Source: a virus
Lineage: Duplodnaviria > Heunggongvirae > Uroviricota > Caudoviricetes
Virus record (IMG/VR): IMGVR_UViG_2850808358_000012
Coordinates: 1 to 37,841 of that record
Direction: 5' to 3' (one strand)
DNA length: 37,841 bases
Shown here: piece by piece, positions 22,020-37,841 of the stretch
Position numbering within the stretch: the stretch's first letter is position 1
Layout: each line of letters begins with the position of its first letter
Notes under the pieces: model-generated
Told to the model about the DNA's origin: nothing
Database searches by the model: none
The model's input: the letters and a program-made list of their open reading frames with translations, nothing else
Made by a program: the position numbers and the translations under genes

Positions 22020-23673
22020 TACCAGCCCCCTCGTTCAAACTGGTGATAATCATCAAAATCATCGTTATCAACACCATCACCACGGTGGCGTGGTGGCAGC
22101 GCCTGTATGCTGTCCTCGTCGATAACAAAACCATTCATATAAGACGCCCTGACAGCCATACAGAGCGCCACGGCAAAGTCGCCATGTCGTCGGCCTTTAC
22201 CGCCTTCGTCTTTTGTGCGCCCCTTATCAATCTGCGGAATACCTTTGTCCACCTTGATGTGGAGCAGGTCATCAAGTGTGGTCTGGTGCCGGGCAATCGT
22301 GATGTTCTGCGCTTCAAACTCGCCTTTCAGTTTCGGCATCCACTCCTGATACCAGGATGCGGTCAGATTCACACAGTCGATCATCTCCGGGCCATAAATC
22401 AGACGGGCGGCTTCTGCCAGATAACCGCCGTTACCGGTGGCATCAAATGCAGCGCCGGTAAAACGGGGCAAACGGGACAGAATGAATAAAAGGATTTGTC
22501 GCTGCTGGTCATAGGTCACATTACGCAGCTCCACGCGGAAACATTCGCGTTTGCGTAAGTCAGGCGTGATGGCAAGCGGCACAAACACCGTCAGGTCGCC
22601 ACGGCGTGCAAAGTCTTCGCCCAGTACGTGTTTATTGAGCGGCGACAGCGCATCGAGCAACGGGAGCAGCTCCTGTTCACACCAGTCCTGAACGATGCCG
22701 TGGCGCATTTGTGGTGTCAGCGATTCAAAATCGTCCGGGGCTTCAAAACGCAGAACCGGGATATCCCGCGCGGGTGTCATGGCAGCTTCAATCAGCACGC
22801 GTGACAGATAAGCGCCCCGGATTTTTTAGGAATGCAGCCGTATTCCTCGTCGGCGCTCTCTTTATTCGGCGCATTCCGGTACAGGCCATCACGCCAGGCT
22901 TTTTCCGCTTCCGGCGACCACGGCTGATTCGTGACGTAACAGATACGCCGGTACAACCCGTCAGCGATGGCATCATCCAGTGTGATGCGGTGAACGCTGT
23001 AATCCTTGCGCCCCTCGCGCGCATCCTGAATGTACTGGTTAAACAGGTTATCGACGCCGTTATGTGTCGATATGATGCGCACGCTGGCACCCCACATGTT
23101 TAGTGCAAAGGCCGCTTTCAGCAGTTCGTCCAGGGCTTCATGGAATGCCGCTTCATCAATCACCACGTCCCCCTGCAAACCACGCAGGTTAGACGGGCGG
23201 CTTGACAGCGCCTGTATCTTAAATCCGCTGTTCGGAAAGCGGATCATGTAGGTGAGGATTTCTTCTTTTTTGTCGCTGTCCCAGAAGGTCTGCTCCCAGA
23301 CGTCAGCCTTTGCCAGCTGGTTAAAGGCGCGGGCAAACAGGGCACAGGCGGCGATGTATTCCAGCGCCATTTCCTGACGGGAACCCACATAAAAGACGTT
23401 GCGACCACCGCGACGCTTCGGCTTTGCTGCCGTCATGACATTGCGGCCCGCTTCAGCCCATGTCAGACCGGTACGACGGGATTTTTCAGCGATGCAAATC
23501 TGGCTTTCATCCTCAAACCAGCGGCGCTGATAGCCCAGAAAAACCGGTTCATTGCGGGGCTGTGCTTCCCCGATATCGGTCACGATATTCACGCCGAGCA
23601 GTTCGGCTTCCTTACGCAGGTTGATTTTGCGGGGCGCATGAAGGGCTTTAAGTTTGCTTTCTCTGGTGCTCAC
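22019..23673 (-). CDS. Terminase large subunit, frameshifted as sequenced
   Basis: Two ORFs (22792..23673 and 22019..22798) in frames differing by 1 nt. The downstream frame is open from 22825; one extra A in the A6 run (plus-strand T6 at 22822-22827) restores a ~552-aa ORF. Confidence 0.7.
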
Positions 23674-23728
23674 GGGTGAAAAATCCGGTATAAATTTTCA
23701 GGCATTAATCAGTAAAAAAGAGGTTTTT

Positions 23729-23923
23729 ATGAAAGAGAAACTGACCATTGATCAAAAAATCGAAATTGCCCGGATAGCCGTGCAAATGTTTGAATCCACC
23801 CGGGCAAAAGGCGTTTCACTTGAGATCTCCTGTTCAGGAAAAGCATCAGTGGAAGAAAACACATTTAATGCTTTCTACAAAATTGTTGAAAAAACCGTTA
23901 TCGGTGAACCTGAGAATAACTGA
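23729..23923 (+). CDS. Small hypothetical protein (64 aa) on the opposite strand
   Basis: Strong SD (AAGAGG 5 nt upstream of ATG); AT-rich; converges on and overlaps the 3' end of the 23898..24095 ORF. Confidence 0.5.
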   Translation: MKEKLTIDQKIEIARIAVQMFESTRAKGVSLEISCSGKASVEENTFNAFYKIVEKTVIGEPENN

Positions 23924-24095
23924 TCACCTGGCCCGCTGTAGCCGGGCCATCCACCAGTTGCATAACCAGATACAGGGCCTCGGCCATAATTCGTGGATGG
24001 ACTTCCGGATCCTCATCAATCTGTTTTTTCACAACGGGCCACAGTGCCATTGCCAGTTCTGTTGAGGTTTTGTATTTAGTTTTTTCATCCGCCAT
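23898..24095 (-). CDS. Small hypothetical protein (65 aa)
   Basis: GAGGAG 6 nt upstream of the second ATG (MADEKTKYK...); AT-rich segment between gp27-like gene and terminase. Confidence 0.45.
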   Translation of the reverse strand: MADEKTKYKTSTELAMALWPVVKKQIDEDPEVHPRIMAEALYLVMQLVDGPATAGQVISYSQVHR

Positions 24096-24105
24096 TTTCA
24101 TCTCC

Positions 24106-24276
24106 TCAGGACAAAGTCCTTAGTTGTTTTATGGTCGTATGCCATGAATTGCCTGAAGCCATAGCCTGAACAAGCACATCCCGAATCTGGTGTATCAACC
24201 GGACATCAGACAATGTTGCAATCCTGAAGGCTTTTTTATGGGCACTGATTAGCTGTGCTTTGTAATTATTTTTCAT
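24106..24276 (-). CDS. Small hypothetical protein (56 aa)
   Basis: Distal part of six-frame ORF 24106..24471; starts 10 nt after the stop of the 24287..24877 gene. Confidence 0.35.
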   Translation of the reverse strand: MKNNYKAQLISAHKKAFRIATLSDVRLIHQIRDVLVQAMASGNSWHTTIKQLRTLS

Positions 24277-24286
24277 AACGTAACGC

Positions 24287-24877
24287 CTACGCTTTCCCCA
24301 GCAGTACATCACGGATGCGCTGCTCCAGTTCTTCGCTGATGCCATCCTGCCCGCGCAGTTCTTCACTGACGGCGTTTGCCGCTTCTTCTGCGAACGCCTG
24401 GCGGATTTCTTTCTCGCGCCGGTGGCTGGACATTGCTGTGGATTCCAGACGCTGTGCCGCCAGCATGGCATTTTTCAGCAGGTCAATATCCACGTCAGAT
24501 TCCGGGTTTTCGATTTGCCGCATCATGGCCTTAAAAAGCTGGCTGCGGGCCATTTCCAGAATCAGCTTTGTGGTTTCGCCCATTGGCTTGTCGCCAAGCT
24601 CTGCGGTCAGTGCTGACGTCATTTCACGCATCTGTCGCAGGTTATGGCCTACCTGCTCGACGTTCGTCGCGTAACGGTTCAGACCGGAACGGGAGAGTTT
24701 CATCTCATCCGGCAGGCCAGCGTCTTCAATCAGTGCGTTAATTTCTTCAAGAATACGGGCCTGTGGGATCGCCTTATCACGCAGCATTTCATGCAGCGTT
24801 TTACGTACGTTTTCCGGCAGTAAATCCACTTTTGAAGCCCGTCCCCGTGTTTTCCTGTCCATCACGCCTCCTGTCAT
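24287..24877 (-). CDS. Mu gp27-like protein, possible terminase small subunit
   Basis: 196 aa, position upstream of terminase large subunit. Confidence 0.5.
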   Translation of the reverse strand: MTGGVMDRKTRGRASKVDLLPENVRKTLHEMLRDKAIPQARILEEINALIEDAGLPDEMKLSRSGLNRYATNVEQVGHNLRQMREMTSALTAELGDKPMGETTKLILEMARSQLFKAMMRQIENPESDVDIDLLKNAMLAAQRLESTAMSSHRREKEIRQAFAEEAANAVSEELRGQDGISEELEQRIRDVLLGKA

Positions 24878-30386: not shown

Positions 30387-30992
30387 TTATTCCTCCGTCA
30401 GTGCCACAAATTCAGAATGTTTAATGCGCTGGCATTCGGCGGGAACCGGTCCCTTCACTTCGCCAGCCAGAAGGTACACCGCAAACAAAATGCCGAATCC
30501 GTCACGGCCGTGGTGCATTTCCCACACTGATTTGATGTCAAACAGGTCAACGTCGGTAGCCACGTTAAGTTCATTGCACAGCCAGACCGGAAAATCCGGG
30601 TATTTTTCGAGCTGATTTTCACAGTCCCGGATGCGCTTCCCGTATTCACGGCCTGCCGGTATTGTCATATCCGGCATTGCCGCCCATAACTGAATATCGC
30701 CAATGAAAAGTGTTTTTGATTCAGTTACCCATCCTTCCGGTGGTAAACGGTTAAACCAGACACGCGTAACCCTCTCAGGCCCTTTGTCACCAGACAAAGA
30801 CACACCGGTTGCATTCACTGATTGCTGTAATAACGAAATAATCTCACCACGCTTAACATAAACGTCTTTCAGCCAGCGAATCGTATAAGCGTTAGCGGCT
30901 GTGTCACTCAGTTTAAAATAAGCACATGCTGTCATTTTCATTCTCTCCGGTTCTGATTCAGGCGCGAGTAGTCCCCTGACGCATCGCGCCAA
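30387..30992 (-). CDS. Hypothetical early protein downstream of gam
   Basis: 201-aa ORF; real start possibly at internal MKMTACAYF.... Confidence 0.5.
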   Translation of the reverse strand: MARCVRGLLAPESEPERMKMTACAYFKLSDTAANAYTIRWLKDVYVKRGEIISLLQQSVNATGVSLSGDKGPERVTRVWFNRLPPEGWVTESKTLFIGDIQLWAAMPDMTIPAGREYGKRIRDCENQLEKYPDFPVWLCNELNVATDVDLFDIKSVWEMHHGRDGFGILFAVYLLAGEVKGPVPAECQRIKHSEFVALTEE

Positions 30993-32841: not shown

Positions 32842-33047
32842 CCATTAAGACGGGCCGTCCATACAGAACGGGCCACCCCGGACTTATGCTCCATAATTCT
32901 GACCGCGCTTTTTACCAGTTCCACCGGAGGGTAAGTGATTTCAAGGATCGGACGCGCCACGCCGAGATATGATTCATTTACATGACTCCCGCGCGCCTGT
33001 AACCAGTTCTGCGCATCCGTTGCCATTTTTATATTTCGTGACATCAT
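32820..33047 (-). CDS. Small early protein immediately downstream of B (kil position)
   Basis: 75-aa ORF at the position kil occupies in Mu. Confidence 0.4.
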
Positions 33048-33997
33048 GATTTCGCTCTCCTTATACCCAACTGTTCCTGAACATCCACATCCTGATCCAG
33101 TTCTTCGTAAGCCTCACGCAGGTAATCTTCGTTAACACGTTTGCCTTTACCGTAAGCATTCATGGCAGCAAGACGTAATGTGTAAGTCATGGTGCGAATT
33201 GCACCTGGTTTCTGTGCAATCTCCAGTAAGAATTCCTGCTCTTTTTTGGCGGTAACATCCCAGGCTTCCGCAATCGCTTTTACATCGTTAACTTTGGGCG
33301 CTTTGATAGCCGTGCGTTTTGCTATGCGCGAAAACAGACGGGCAAACTCAACCGTTTTGCTCCCCCCCGTCATATTCGTGTAAAGATGGTGATTACCCAT
33401 CAATACCAGGCCAATACGGGTTGATTCCTGTAACAAACGAAGTTCTTCCAGCGCCGCAATATCAAGATGGTCTGCTTCATCTACAATAACCACCCCATGC
33501 GTTCCCCCAAGACGACGGCGCAATTCACGGGATAACGGCCCCTTGCAGCGTGGGATACCGTTCATTCCCAGCTCAAACGCCAGTTCCGTAAGACATTCCA
33601 GAACACTGACACGGGATGGTGCCATGGTGATCATCCAGACGTTATTATTGGTACGGCGATACTCTTTGGCTGCTTCAGATTTACCCACACCAGGATTACC
33701 GCAGATAACAGCAATACTCTCTGTCAGGCTGGCAAAGCGTATACTTGTCCAGATTTGTTTTACCGTCTGCGTTTGAACAAAACCAGGCAATTCCGGCAGG
33801 TCTGCGGCAGCAAGATAATCGTCAAGCCAGCACTTCAGTACCTGTGCGATACGTTCATTATCGCCGCTGTATTTATCGTTAATAAACGCACTGACAGTCC
33901 CGGTAGAAATATCACTCTCAATAGCAATTTGTTTAAAAGTGACTTTTTCACTTTCTACAAGTGTGCGTAGTTCTTCGCGAATATCAGAAATATTCAT
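33044..33997 (-). CDS. B: Transposition ATPase B (target DNA activator)
   Basis: 317 aa; N-terminal HTH-like region; Walker [10 protein letters not shown]; immediately downstream of the transposase. Confidence 0.85.
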
Positions 33998-34031: not shown

Positions 34032-36137
34032 TTAATTAAACAGCTTTTTACGTCTTTTCTGTTCCAGAATATCCAGTGAATGATTCAGATATTCATCACG
34101 CTCAGCGTTGTATGCATTATCAAGCGTCTCCTCAGGAGCCTGAGGCTGAACTGTCACCACATTACCCACAGGGCGATAAACATTCCCCAGCCAGGGTTCT
34201 GTCGTTTTTTGTTCAATAACCTGAATACCTTCATCTTCAGCATCACGAATTTTTCCCTCAGCGCGTTTGCGCATTCCTTTAATACGCTGCTGCTGTTTGT
34301 GATATTCCGCACTGACAGGAAAGGCTGCGCGTTTATTGCCGTTCCATATCGCCTCACAAATAAAACTGCCATCCTTACGGCGCACTGTAATTCGCTCTGC
34401 ATCATGAATGTCATAGCTGATAAGCACTTTGCGACCATGTTCATCACGCAGCTCCGGCGCGTAATAAATATTCCCAAGCCATTTGATTTCGCAGCGTCTT
34501 ACCGGTCGTTCCACCATTGGGCGGAACATGTCGCGCAGCTCAAGATCACTCAGCCACTCAATTTCGGTGTCTTCTTCTGCCAGGCGTTTTTTTCTGAACT
34601 CTGTCGGGCTGTAATGCCGTCCGTTCGGTTTCATCGGCAGCTCAGAATGCGGGCGGTTGTTGTACCATTCCACGCCTTCACGAATAGCCTCAATAAGCTC
34701 CGCCCACGATGGCAGCTCGCGCATTGCCGCTTTCTGGCGGTCGTTCAGAGGCTTGTCCTGTTGCAGGGCGTTAAACGCTGAACGCAGATCACGGTTAAGT
34801 ACACGCAACGATTCCCGGTCAGCACCCTTGCCAAAATAGGTGCGATACCTCCTGGCTATACGCATCGGCAGTGTCCGGTTCAGGCGTTCAATAATGCCGC
34901 GTCCCTGTGGATTACCGGCAATACCGGTAGGGTGTTTAATCCCCAGGCGTGGCAGAATACCCACGACCTCTTTGTCCAGCATGTCAGCCGTTTCACCGGA
35001 ACCGTTATCCGAGTAATACAGGAACGGTTTTCCGTGGTTGCGAATGCCGTGCTGTATCGCACCGGCAACGGCGAACACGTTTTCGGCAAGGTCAAGACTC
35101 CAGCCAACAACAAACCGTGTTCCACCATCGATCACAAACGTGACTTCCGGTGAGAATGGACGCCCGTGGATCGGATGCGCACATTTCAGCTTCATACCGT
35201 GACCGTCACCAATCCAGACATAATTCACCGGCATAGCTGTCCAGTCGCGGCGGGTGAATCCTTCAAGCTGACGGTATTCACTGCCGGTAACGCGCCCTTT
35301 TTGTCTCACCACTTCCGGCAGTTTTTTCATGGCATACCGGACAACATCATAGGAAGGCATCACCTCCAGCATGTACGGTTCGTCCGCATGGCGACGCTGC
35401 CATTCTGCGACAAAATCCTCGTAGGCTTCTGACATGGGTCTGCCGTTCACCTGCCGATACTGCGCCAGAAATTCAGGCAGCCAGCTGATTTCTTCCGGTT
35501 TTATTTCGTCGCGTTTTCCCGGTGCCAGTAACAGCAGCCGTTCGGCGGCGTTCTGCGACTGGTTGTATTTCAGAACCCACTGGTAAAGTGGATCGCGGCT
35601 GATAGTACGATTAGCGCCACGTTTTGCATTGGCGTTAACTGCGGCCTGTTGCAGGCGCTCCGGCAGCTCACCTTTACGGGCTTTTTCAACAAGAAAGTTA
35701 ATGGCTTTCAGTCGCCCGAGGTTACCGGCGCTTTCCAGCTTCAGCACTTCCACCACCAGCGCAGCTCTTGCTTCAGATACCCGGCGCTGGTTTTCGGTCA
35801 GCGCATTCAGGCGTTCTTCCATCAGTTGTGGAGAACCGCGATATGCTTCGATTGCCTGGACAGCGTCAGGATTGCGTGTTTTTCTGGTAACAGCTTTCAC
35901 TTCAGAAACATTGTTCTCTGTAGCCACCAGCTGTTCCACATAGCGTTCACGCAGTGCCTTTCGTGTTATTTCAGGCAGACAATCAATGTGGTACTCAATG
36001 GCTTTTGTGCCTTCCCGACGGCGACTAACGTCACCAAGATCACGAGAAAAACGCTGTAACGCCTGTCGGATGCCTTTTGTGGTGGCTGGCATTCCTGGTA
36101 CGCCGAGCAGGTCATTTACGGTAACGTACGACTGCAT
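34032..36137 (-). CDS. A: DDE transposase A (Mu A family)
   Basis: C-terminus ...ERDEYLNHSLDILEQKRRKK matches the Mu A C-terminal tail. N-terminal domain aligns with Mu A domain I (GxP...G..KAIEY...LP.E.K) but is divergent. Start set at ATG 36137 (AGGAAGG 8 nt upstream) rather than the six-frame start at 36206. Confidence 0.85.
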   Translation of the reverse strand: MQSYVTVNDLLGVPGMPATTKGIRQALQRFSRDLGDVSRRREGTKAIEYHIDCLPEITRKALRERYVEQLVATENNVSEVKAVTRKTRNPDAVQAIEAYRGSPQLMEERLNALTENQRRVSEARAALVVEVLKLESAGNLGRLKAINFLVEKARKGELPERLQQAAVNANAKRGANRTISRDPLYQWVLKYNQSQNAAERLLLLAPGKRDEIKPEEISWLPEFLAQYRQVNGRPMSEAYEDFVAEWQRRHADEPYMLEVMPSYDVVRYAMKKLPEVVRQKGRVTGSEYRQLEGFTRRDWTAMPVNYVWIGDGHGMKLKCAHPIHGRPFSPEVTFVIDGGTRFVVGWSLDLAENVFAVAGAIQHGIRNHGKPFLYYSDNGSGETADMLDKEVVGILPRLGIKHPTGIAGNPQGRGIIERLNRTLPMRIARRYRTYFGKGADRESLRVLNRDLRSAFNALQQDKPLNDRQKAAMRELPSWAELIEAIREGVEWYNNRPHSELPMKPNGRHYSPTEFRKKRLAEEDTEIEWLSDLELRDMFRPMVERPVRRCEIKWLGNIYYAPELRDEHGRKVLISYDIHDAERITVRRKDGSFICEAIWNGNKRAAFPVSAEYHKQQQRIKGMRKRAEGKIRDAEDEGIQVIEQKTTEPWLGNVYRPVGNVVTVQPQAPEETLDNAYNAERDEYLNHSLDILEQKRRKKLFN

Positions 36138-36138
36138 A

Positions 36139-36390
36139 TCACGACACCTTCCTGATAAATCCATCGTTACGATACCGGCTGGGCCAGATGATTTCTGGCG
36201 GTACACCTATAGCGTCAGAAATTACGCGTTCGTATTTTTTGTTTGGTGTGCGAACTACCGCTTTCAGTGAATCCTGAGCATAACCAGCATGGAGTGAAAG
36301 CTCCCGGAAGGAAGACCACCCGTTATCTTTGAGCGCCAGCTGAATCTTCAGCGAAGGCCAATCGCGGTCACTATCTTCTCTTTGTCTCAT
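36139..36390 (-). CDS. ner: Ner-like DNA-binding regulator
   Basis: 83 aa; ...DAIGVPPEIIWPSRY motif typical of the Ner/Nlp family; first gene of the early operon. Confidence 0.8.
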   Translation of the reverse strand: MRQREDSDRDWPSLKIQLALKDNGWSSFRELSLHAGYAQDSLKAVVRTPNKKYERVISDAIGVPPEIIWPSRYRNDGFIRKVS

Positions 36391-36554
36391 CTTTCCTTTA
36401 ACCTACAAAATTACCCGCGCGGATATCCGGTCGGATATCCGTATGGATAAAGATTAAGATGCCAAAGATTCCTTGTAAAGGCTTCTTTGGTGTTTTTGTG
36501 GTTTATTTTTTAATTTCATTATTTATCAATGAATTAGATAGAAAGGAACCAAGA
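36391..36554. promoter_or_regulatory. Divergent early-promoter/operator region between ner and repressor
   Basis: Two palindromic GGATATCCG copies (36421-36429 and 36433-36441), 12 bp apart, plus a GGATA half-site. Confidence 0.5.
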
Positions 36555-37118
36555 ATGAGAAAAGCACCCCAAGGTTCTTTTCCTGCCGATGGAAAAGAAC
36601 CGATTATCGAAAGAATCTTTAGGTTAGTAGAACGATACCCTTCAAGAAATGCGGCTGCTCGGGCATGGGGGATCAATGAAGGCACTTTAAAAAATTATTA
36701 CAACAGGCGGGATTACGCACCGATACCACGCCCGCATCAGTTAAAAAAGATAGCAGAAAGCGAAAATGTTACCTTGGAATGGCTCATGACGGGAGAGGGT
36801 GATGTTGAACTAAAAGATTCCAAAGAACCCAAAAAAGAGAATGCGGATAATGTTGATGCTCAAATTCTAATGTTCTTGTCATTTCTTAAACCACAAGAAA
36901 AACAACAAGTAGCTGATGTTCTTGGGAGAAAAGGAGCGGAGCAATTACTCATTCTTCTGGATGAGCACATCCAAGAGTTGCACGCTCTAGTTGGAGTTCG
37001 TAGAGCCATAGCGTTAAGCCTTGGTAATTTGCCAGACGAAAAGGTTAGAGAGATTTACGCGTTGTCCGAAGCTAAGGGCGATCACTTAAATCTACCTCAG
37101 AAAGCAGCCAGCGCATAA
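36555..37118 (+). CDS. Repressor, CI-type helix-turn-helix (not Mu c-type)
   Basis: Start at the ATG with AAGGAA 6 nt upstream (six-frame ORF begins at 36459). HTH region ...AAARAWGINEGTLKNYYN...TLEWLMTGEG; transcribed divergently from ner toward the phage end. Confidence 0.65.
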   Translation: MRKAPQGSFPADGKEPIIERIFRLVERYPSRNAAARAWGINEGTLKNYYNRRDYAPIPRPHQLKKIAESENVTLEWLMTGEGDVELKDSKEPKKENADNVDAQILMFLSFLKPQEKQQVADVLGRKGAEQLLILLDEHIQELHALVGVRRAIALSLGNLPDEKVREIYALSEAKGDHLNLPQKAASA

Positions 37119-37242
37119 CCCAGTGCAAGTGCCTAGCTGTGCTAAAATTACATTGGTTTTGGCGCTTGCACCCATCAGCGCTATAATAAACACCTGAATC
37201 GTTTTTGAACGGTCTTTAAAGGCTATTGTAAGAACCTGTGAG

Positions 37243-37376
37243 TTATCTTGAATGTTTTATTGATATCGAACCGTTTAACATTTTTGGACTCGCTTTATCT
37301 TGAAAACCTTGAGTTCCTAACTTGTTGATTCCAATCTATTCCCGTCTTTTTTAATCTCTTCCCGGTTATCTTGAAT
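37243..37376. repeat. Three spaced TTATCTTGAA repeats at the repressor end; putative transposase-binding sites (L1-L3-like)
   Basis: Copies at 37243-37252, 37295-37304 and 37366-37375, the last contained in the terminal inverted repeat. Confidence 0.6.
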
Positions 37377-37379
37377 AAA

Positions 37380-37841
37380 TTACCTAGTCATATCCTTTTG
37401 GATGTCATTCTCCGGTGGCAACGGGGTGAAGCTCTTTATCACCTCCAGCAGCATCGTCTTTTGACTGTTCTTCAGGGATAAGGAGGTGCTGAAAGTGAAG
37501 GTCAGCAGCGTATCTCCACGCCGCTGGAATACGGCTATCTGGCTAATCCGCCCCTGATTCCCCTCATCTTCCGGACCGTTCCAGGAATAATCCAGCAGCC
37601 AGGCCGGGGCCTCTGCCAGAGTGATTTCCCGGCAGGCATGTTCGGTGTACCCATCAAGTTTGCCCTGGTACAGCGCCAGCGTTTCCTGGTACAGCTCTGG
37701 TGTCAGGGTTCCCTGTGGAACGGCTTCGCGGGTAATGACCAGGTTGATGCCACTGTTATCTGTGGACACCAGGACCTGCATTGACTGATCCTGCCATTGA
37801 GACGGCAGTTGAATGTGGCCTTCATTAAAAGTGAACTGCAT
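37380..37841 (-). CDS. Host DUF1795/DcrB-family protein, EagR-like T6SS effector chaperone
   Basis: 153 aa; N-terminal pattern F.EG.I.LP..WQDQS...SG.NLVITRE resembles DUF1795 proteins as I recall them; stop codon overlaps the 5-bp target duplication. Confidence 0.5.
   Translation of the reverse strand: MQFTFNEGHIQLPSQWQDQSMQVLVSTDNSGINLVITREAVPQGTLTPELYQETLALYQGKLDGYTEHACREITLAEAPAWLLDYSWNGPEDEGNQGRISQIAVFQRRGDTLLTFTFSTSLSLKNSQKTMLLEVIKSFTPLPPENDIQKDMTR

Follow-up and report, generated by a model that had tools for sequence, protein, structure and literature searches.

Phage Mu is the textbook case of a lysogenic repressor and a transposase that have a DNA-binding domain in common and contend for a single operator/enhancer. 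Whether this arrangement holds in a close relative is the question raised by the left end of an intact Mu-family prophage, which lies in reverse orientation in a stretch of viral DNA of 37,841 nucleotides (IMG/VR record IMGVR_UViG_2850808358_000012; the whole stretch is hereafter called the window). This left end, at 36139–37118, carries the repressor gene c and the ner gene, and the initial annotation had described it as a CI-type immunity region on a Mu backbone, with palindromes in the operator region and possibly a different control of induction. We consider it likely that the element is a mosaic Mu prophage whose c protein is a hybrid of two unrelated domains, with c acting on an array of 9-mers, Ner acting on GATA-type repeats and derepression proceeding as in Mu. 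The coordinates of all features are given in Table 1.

Domains of the c repressor

We placed the start of c at the ATG at 36555 because its homologues start there and an AAGGA motif lies 8 nt upstream. A longer reading frame from 36459 (219 aa) was rejected, as the homologues (187–191 aa) begin at MRK.., some of them later still. The protein thus defined consists of a helix–turn–helix (HTH) domain (residues 1–85), a disordered linker (87–97) and a helical C-domain (94–187) that ends in ..PQKAASA, and it was 99–100% conserved over 135 member sequences. As a whole, c matched PHROG 3037 ('transcriptional repressor', Mu-like phages; E 1.3e-43, residues 2–184 on positions 3–188 of 189), a profile that was also matched by the repressors of the Yersinia phage vB_YpM_5, of the Pseudomonas phage VW-6B and of an Escherichia coli FDAARGOS_943 locus (L001).

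The AlphaFold model of the head contains five helices (residues 17–25, 31–38, 42–50, 60–70 and 74–79; predicted local distance difference test, about 85–91), and helix 42–50 (GTLKNYYN) is the putative recognition helix. The Pfam family PF07022 (Phage_CI_repr) matched c weakly (17.7 bits, E 0.0047, profile positions 3–63 of 65). Fifteen of the 19 c homologues also matched this family (E up to 0.01); the relatives P0034, P0039 and P0043 exceeded its cut-off (26.4, 27.2 and 24.9 bits), and several exceeded that of HTH_3. When a profile of the head was compared with the PDB, it matched XRE-type, 434 repressor, SinR, P2 C, TP901-1 CI and 186 CI chains; the full-length c profile gave marginal matches only, so that a profile of the N-domain alone was needed. 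The DNA-binding domain showed no similarity to that of Mu or D108 c, so that the homology which would have refuted the initial annotation was not observed, and hhalign gave a probability of 0.5% against a winged-helix profile composed of the heads of Mu, D108 and related repressors together with the I-alpha domains of transposase A. The CI/Cro-type HTH proposed in the initial annotation is therefore borne out: the head of c is a five-helix Cro/C1-type HTH of the lambda/434/P22 kind, unrelated to the winged helix of Mu c. The same five-helix fold occurs in 186 CI (the PF07022 type), 434, P22 c2 and lambda CI, and the ..V(S/T)LEWL.TG.. stretch corresponds to the C-terminal signature of PF07022.

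The C-terminal half of c has a different affiliation. Residues 99–181 aligned with the C-terminal region of D108 c (E 2e-8, 31% over 86 aa), residues 87–184 matched phrog_7148, the PHROG of Mu c (E 6.5e-12), and residues 94–187 were 40% identical over 94 aa (E 1e-21) to the repressor of an IMG/VR locus, L069, in an alignment that reached the last residue and ended in ..KAASA in c and ..KQASA in L069. The L069 repressor carries a Mu-type winged-helix head and is homologous to D108 c over its full length. Because the C-terminal half is homologous to repressors of the Mu/D108 type, the swap occurred at the level of the domain, inside the c gene; a lambda/434-type HTH head would have replaced the winged-helix head, with the Mu-type C-domain and tail retained. 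The label 'CI-type' consequently fits the head and does not extend to the whole protein. An exhaustive search with the C-domain in the representative library recovered few clusters, the heads of which were PF02316 or PF07022/HTH_3. A third head arrangement was observed in P0037 (266 aa), which has two tandem Mu-type winged-helix heads on the same C-domain.

In Mu, the C-domain and tail of the repressor serve oligomerisation and the control of stability, and derepression occurs when the repressor is lost through ClpXP and Lon. We looked for the alternative machinery of lambda-type repressors. A Peptidase_S24 domain gave no match in c at E up to 0.1 and none in 19 homologues at E up to 0.01, the C-terminal half is all-helical in the AlphaFold model, and no LexA box was present in 36139–37118. 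Because there is neither an S24 domain nor a LexA box and because the Mu-type C-domain and tail are kept, Mu-like induction is the most likely mode, and the suggestion of a different induction control was not upheld. By this analysis, induction is probably Mu-like, acting on the activity or stability of the repressor, and not RecA-driven; derepression would follow from repressor loss as in Mu and not from RecA-stimulated self-cleavage.

The transposase presents the opposite picture to the repressor, since it keeps its winged helix. The N-terminus of A, which the initial annotation had singled out for examination, retains a Mu-type winged-helix I-alpha domain (PF02316, E 5e-7; residues 2–65 matching phrog_7148, E 6.9e-8), and the N-terminus of D108 c aligned with A (36% over 67 aa). 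Overall, A shares 27% identity with MuA, save for the last ~30 residues, which are Mu-like; in MuA these residues contact B and ClpX. The heads of c and A are alike in L069, as in Mu, and unlike in this prophage. Judged from their sequences, the repressor and the transposase here are without the shared DNA-binding domain found in Mu.

Sites in the control region and the proteins that may read them

We aligned the 164 bp between ner and c from about 25 loci in E. coli, Shigella, VW-6B, Sodalis, Pantoea, Cedecea and IMG/VR contigs, and found that the layout of this control region was kept nearly gap-free. An early promoter, Pe, is predicted at a position where 14 of 17 related loci have their best sigma-70 match, or one tied for best; its -10 element ends 59–60 nt before the ner ATG. 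The predicted start, at about 36444, places three GATA-type repeats at approximately +1 to +25, so that the leader of the early transcript would begin with them. The palindromes reported in the initial annotation are among these repeats: CGGATATCCG occurs exactly twice, and these are the only exact copies in the window, in which we estimate that about 0.04 would be expected for a 10-mer palindrome. Conserved as GGATAWC/GGWTATC/GGATAAA in about 25 loci, the repeats persist as a GATAAC/GTTATC-type set across all c types, and their location corresponds to that of the Ner region in Mu and, in D108, of a perfect inverted repeat of 11 bp for Ner. L001 combines the same ner and A with a c protein of only 46% identity, yet its GGATATCC repeats are identical to those here, and the divergence between the two sequences starts directly past them. 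Because the repeats were kept with ner and A when c was exchanged, and because of their Mu/D108 Ner-site position, we assign them to Ner; they are probably the Ner operator rather than the c operator. Ner would thus act a short way past the Pe start, by binding the three GGATATCC-type repeats there.

A second set of sites, AAAAGAACC-like 9-mers, forms two clusters. The ner-proximal cluster is the inverted repeat IR1, the arms of which change symmetrically across loci (from ACCAAAAA/TTTTTGGT to ACGAAAAA/TTTTTCGT); the -35 element of Pe lies at the junction of the left arm and the 3-nt spacer here, and in the 7-nt spacer of most relatives. The c-proximal cluster holds 4 of the 12 matches in the window (up to 1 mismatch) within 60 bp and overlaps the c start codon and the first 16 codons, its middle pair forming a second inverted repeat, IR2, with a 4-bp spacer. 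The positions of these 9-mers were retained in L001 and L005, where c starts later and the copies are non-coding, and in the vB_YpM_5-type loci coding and non-coding 9-mers shift jointly to AAAAGAAAG. As position and joint change are independent of coding, the constraint acts on the DNA, and the disordered but conserved N-terminal peptide KEPxGSFPxxGKEP is probably a by-product of it. Between the two clusters lies a consensus site for integration host factor (IHF), the ATCAAT core of which is conserved in related loci.

The Mu sequence follows the same plan, with the CTTTTY sites of O1 in the first c codons, an IHF consensus, O2 over Pe and the Ner region; the Mu operator/enhancer and its IHF site have been described (PMC3820752). 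We assign the 9-mer clusters to c because one of them, IR1, lies over Pe and the other over the c start, and because the arms of IR1 change symmetrically, and we regard the 9-mer array as the better operator/enhancer candidate over the palindromes. In the mechanism that we propose, c would bind the 9-mers and oligomerise through its C-domain; the cluster over the -35 element and spacer of Pe and the cluster over the c start, with IHF between them, would correspond to the O2–IHF–O1 order of Mu, and binding would both silence ner-A-B and autoregulate c. The retention of the I-alpha winged helix by A means that there must be an enhancer, most likely in the same control region, and the domain that reads it would no longer have a homologue in the repressor.

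Two other explanations of these sites have to be weighed. If a whole CI-type immunity cassette had been dropped into Mu, the GGATATCCG palindromes would be the operators of the repressor, and induction would follow the lambda-like SOS/RecA route. The CI/Cro-like N-domain, the tandem perfect palindromes that dimeric HTH repressors usually bind and the reported UV inducibility of SfMu, a relative with D108 immunity (PMC4406740), all speak for such a cassette. It is nevertheless quite improbable: c has no S24 peptidase and no non-helical C-domain, its C-terminal half is of the Mu/D108 type and the region lacks a LexA box, and the palindromes, 100% conserved in L001 despite the divergence of c, stand at the Ner-site position of Mu and D108 and remain as a repeat set in relatives with very different c types. 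The alternative that bears on the 9-mers is that the AAAAGAACC-type array is the transpositional enhancer read by the I-alpha domain of A, and that c reads other sites, for example ACC-N-GGT cores alone or the AT-rich spacer, and blocks the enhancer by overlap. The I-alpha domain is conserved, with homologues in the heads of Mu and D108, and the CTTTTY.. sites bound by I-alpha and c in Mu lie in mixed orientation, in two clusters around IHF and partly in the first c codons, a layout that matches the present one exactly; the complement of the 9-mer even contains CTTTT. Mixed orientations and unequal spacers suit a monomeric winged helix better than a rigid dimer. Moreover, where the motif shifts from ACC to AAG, the helix region of A I-alpha is also greatly altered (ATTKGIRQALQR versus GSAQGVRYTIKK), while STLNNY, the core of the recognition helix of c, is common to both types (STLNNYY in L050, which is ACC-type, and STLNNYF in the AAG-type). 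However, the first residues of helix 3 of c differ consistently by type (N-x-x versus P/S-F/Y-S), the symmetric changes in the arms of IR1 are typical of a dimeric binder, and IR1 lies over the -35 element and spacer of Pe, a place that calls for a repressor; the array may well be bound by both proteins. We therefore regard an array read by A in place of c as rather unlikely.

Several observations nonetheless weigh against assigning the 9-mers to a domain-hybrid c and the GATA-type repeats to Ner. The 9-mers could have A I-alpha as their reader, in place of c or together with it, and the array is laid out like the Mu sites to which winged helices bind. Between W-type and vB_YpM_5-type loci both proteins, c and A I-alpha, are different, so that a comparison of these loci cannot tell which of the two is the 9-mer binder; L001 has the same I-alpha as this prophage, a different c and the same class of 9-mer motif. 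The spacer of IR1 is 7 bp in most loci and 3 bp here, and that of IR2 is 4 bp, distances at which a rigid HTH dimer could not bind alike. As ner and A are adjacent, linkage of the GGATATCC repeats to ner is indistinguishable from linkage to A. No convincing position-conserved sigma-70 match for the repressor promoter Pc was found by eye, and a generic scan returned none in the control region. The PF07022 score of c lies under the Pfam gathering cut-off of 22 bits, and the protease route of derepression is drawn solely from the homology of the C-domain and from a tail resembling that of Mu c.

Extent of the exchanged block and boundaries of the prophage

Mu, D108 and SfMu matched the prophage at 89–97% DNA identity, limited to 1070–34125 (from the right end through B). 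The element is a Muvirus by its collinear identity to Mu, its DDE transposase A and AAA+ protein B, its 5-bp target-site duplication and its Pfam families Mu-transpos_C, rve and Phage-MuB_C. The Mu backbone with near-identical Gam (99.4%) and Com (96.8%), as noted in the initial annotation, was thus recovered, together with a mosaic left end; the exchange is wider than the left-end immunity region to which it had been ascribed, and comprises c, ner, A up to about codon 600–670, attL and the terminal ~70 bp of attR. The attR repeats are not Mu-like, and homology to Mu runs from 1070 onwards.

The same module was found on another backbone. In the Shigella flexneri and E. coli loci L006, L007, L017 and L018, c was 99–100%, ner 99–100% and residues 1–600 of A 98–100% identical to those of the prophage, and the module was joined to a B protein of 38% identity and to a different A C-terminus; past about codon 600, the identity to the A of the other backbone drops from 98–100% to 75%. 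The occurrence of the module on another backbone, together with ends unlike those of Mu, means that the exchanged unit was the whole transposition and immunity block with its cognate ends, and that the junction lies in the 3' part of A. We propose that this block (c, ner, A to about codon 600–670 and the repeats of both ends) would have come from another enterobacterial Mu-like lineage. Within it, c varies separately: L001 has the same ner (98%), A (98%) and B, and a c just 46% identical. In the Yersinia phages vB_YpM_5 and vB_YpM_6 the shared part of A begins only at about residue 195, and the ends, ner and c are different ones. The left end of vB_YpM_5 (L037, 1560–1990) carries different end repeats (..AGTATCAAAT..) and an array of AAAAGAAAG-type sites, a pattern that, on comparison of the sequences, fits a joint exchange in which the end repeats and the control region moved together with the N-terminal portion of A. 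The B protein of the prophage was 100% identical to that of L001 and L019, and its lower identity to Mu than that of its neighbours Kil (97%) and Gam suggests a further mosaic patch beside the A junction. Two segments of ~0.6 kb in the otherwise Mu-identical backbone are without a Mu counterpart, at 23672–24291 (between the equivalents of Mu gp27 and gp28) and 30398–30952 (between gam and gp11).

Table 1 Features of the prophage and its left end in the window
Feature	Position	Strand	Protein identity to Mu	Details
Prophage	997–37392			Mu-family, reverse orientation
Target-site duplication	992–996			TCCTT, 5 bp; second copy 37393–37397
attR	997–1081			Terminus 997; three TTCAAGATA repeats at 1013–21, 1035–43 and 1070–78; inverse of attL repeats
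MuB homologue gene (B)	33044–33997	minus	74.5%	
Left mosaic junction zone	34125–34340			Inside 3' end of A; Mu-like DNA stops at 34125
Transposase A	34032–36137	minus	27%	701 aa; true start ATG at 36137
ner homologue	36139–36390	minus	35%	83 aa; Pfam HTH_35 E 1e-13; phrog_769 E 4.6e-23
Three GATA-type repeats	36420–36452			12-bp spacing; CGGATATCCG 36420–36429, CGGATATCCG 36432–36441, TGGATAAAG 36444–36452 (degenerate)
Early promoter Pe (predicted)	36451–36479	minus		-35 TTTACA 36479–36474; 17-nt spacer; -10 TAATCT 36456–36451
IR1	36462–36490			Inverted repeat CCAAAGATTCCTT / AAGGCTTCTTTGG; proposed ner-proximal operator cluster, O2 analogue
IHF consensus	36524–36536	plus		TATCAATGAATTA; AT-rich stretch between 9-mer clusters; one of two exact matches in the window
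c-proximal AAAAGAACC-like 9-mers	36542–36601			36542–50 (+), 36560–68 (+), 36573–81 (-), 36593–601 (+); proposed O1 analogue
c repressor	36555–37118	plus	no match	187 aa; hybrid of lambda/434-type head and Mu/D108-type C-domain
c N-terminal DNA-binding domain	36555–36809	plus		Residues 1–85
attL	37119–37392			Terminus 37392; TTATCTTGAA transposase-site repeats at 37243–52, 37295–304 and 37366–75
Gam			99.4%	
Mor			99%	
C			98.6%	
Mom			97.5%	
Kil			97%	
Com			96.8%	

Each end of the prophage carries three TTCAAGATA copies, inverted between the ends, in place of the Mu sites. The terminal TG..CA dinucleotides expected from Mu were absent, the termini reading 5'-TATGAC.. on the left (37385–37392) and ..GCGCTTT-3' on the right (997–1003). 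The boundaries could nevertheless be fixed: six independent insertions with the same left end split directly after ..TAGTCATA (..GTCATA), host DNA on the attR side stops at 996 in about 2,000 E. coli genomes, and the empty site in E. coli HS consists of both window flanks joined via one TCCTT, giving a clean 5-bp duplication. These data also bear on whether the element is a decaying remnant, the odd repressor of which would be non-functional or an unrelated regulator captured at the left end. The lack of Mu-type terminal dinucleotides and the presence of the exact module in few complete E. coli genomes would suit a remnant, but the perfect duplication with an exact empty site, early genes that are all intact, the same left end at at least six independent insertion sites and the near-complete conservation of c stand against it, as does the presence of the same repressor family in the plaque-forming Muvirus isolates vB_YpM_5 and vB_YpM_6 (PMC10434027). 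A remnant is thus extremely improbable, and we take the prophage, as part of the mosaic reading with a domain-hybrid c, to be in all likelihood an intact, recently transposed Mu-family element in E. coli.

Some further features of the ends and the insertion site were observed. The second of the only two exact IHF consensus matches in the window lies in attL (37318–37330, minus strand), between the first and second transposase-site repeats; Mu has an HU site in the corresponding attL region. Directly past the c stop codon is an inverted repeat with 11-nt arms (37123–33 and 37161–71), and within the region 37123–37187 lies a good sigma-70-like promoter (TTGGCG-17-TATAAT, 37159–37187, plus strand) directed outward toward attL and a DcrB-related gene. 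The last three codons of this DcrB-related gene are supplied by phage DNA, leaving the length of its open reading frame unchanged. On the other side the prophage is flanked by a PAAR/Rhs-type toxin gene, which now stands 36 kb from its upstream genes; the flanks (1–996 and 37393–37841) belong to an island of the type VI secretion system type, with vgrG upstream in E. coli HS. An Rfam scan detected no RNA family anywhere in the window. Matches to CTGTN8ACAG (with at most 1 mismatch) numbered 24 in the window, a count attained by 0 of 100 shuffles, where 10.9 were expected. Every match is in the Mu-like backbone, the control region having none, and the excess may be compositional.

Relation to known repressors and implications for Mu-like phages

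The c genes of Mu (Repc), D108 and SfMu occupy the same position as the one described here, divergent from ner-A-B and next to attL, and the Mu and D108 proteins share with it a homologous C-domain and a short Lys/Ala-rich tail (..KAASA here, ..KKAV in Mu). Their control regions are likewise similar, with a cluster over the c start, IHF, a cluster over Pe and Ner sites. They differ in the head, which in Mu and D108 is a winged helix common to the transposase I-alpha domain, and in the operator motif, which is CTTTTYNRTAA in Mu, AAATCA-type in D108 and either AAAAGAACC-type or GGATATCC-type here. The same two-domain architecture and c-ner-A synteny recur in the repressors of vB_YpM_5 and vB_YpM_6, in the 'C repressor' of VW-6B and in Mu-like elements in Shiga toxin (Stx) phages (PHROG 3037). 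The c protein is 37% identical to that of vB_YpM_5 and 56% to that of VW-6B; vB_YpM_5, another Muvirus, resembles Mu in its late region, but has AAAAGAAAG-type sites and different end repeats. These repressors represent different immunity alleles, and they are annotated as 'hypothetical protein' or named by position.

A lambda-CI-like HTH head is also described for RepC of the Pseudomonas transposable phages (the B3/D3112/Fc02 group), which faces a ner-like gene across pC/pE (PMC9936078). The likeness of RepC to c is one of description, with no sequence relationship established, and unlike the RepC phages the present element keeps the Mu/D108-type C-domain in c and a genome that is mostly 89–97% identical to Mu at the DNA level. 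The C-domain of c is unrelated to that of 186 CI and is without the S24 peptidase of the lambda, 434 and P22 repressors. As lambda-type repressors in Mu-like phages were already known from these Pseudomonas phages, the advance is one of detail and not of kind. We found no paper on the hybrid architecture or on an uncoupling from A I-alpha, although this search covered open-access text only and is weak evidence; the paper on the vB_YpM phages mentions the C-repressor and Ner generically only (PMC10434027). For SfMu, which has D108-type immunity, 38 S. flexneri strains gave a polymerase chain reaction (PCR) product for mor-lysozyme only, and not for c-ner or gin-mom (PMC4406740). This pattern is compatible with Mu-like prophages that carry alleles like the present one.

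We suggest more tentatively, as a possibility that we hold to be less than even, that the coupling known from Mu is broken here, the repressor and the transposase no longer reading the operator/enhancer with homologous domains, and that either convergence or decoupling follows. If so, a lambda-type HTH and the winged helix of MuA I-alpha may have converged on one AAAAGAACC array. Alternatively, the repression of transposition would be purely transcriptional control, with the enhancer read independently, and the shared C-domain would serve as a portable chassis for repressors, able to carry DNA-binding heads of unrelated kinds.

The finding has practical consequences as well. Probes or primers for c-ner built on Mu, D108 or SfMu are expected to miss this allele, and most of the close c homologues stand without functional annotation ('hypothetical protein'). 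For the family, it means that a close relative of Mu exchanged the head of its repressor alone for an unrelated fold, with the transposase keeping its own, while sister phages are still coupled on the same C-domain. This provides a ready-made comparison of how much of Mu immunity comes from competition for the enhancer and how much from repression of the promoter.

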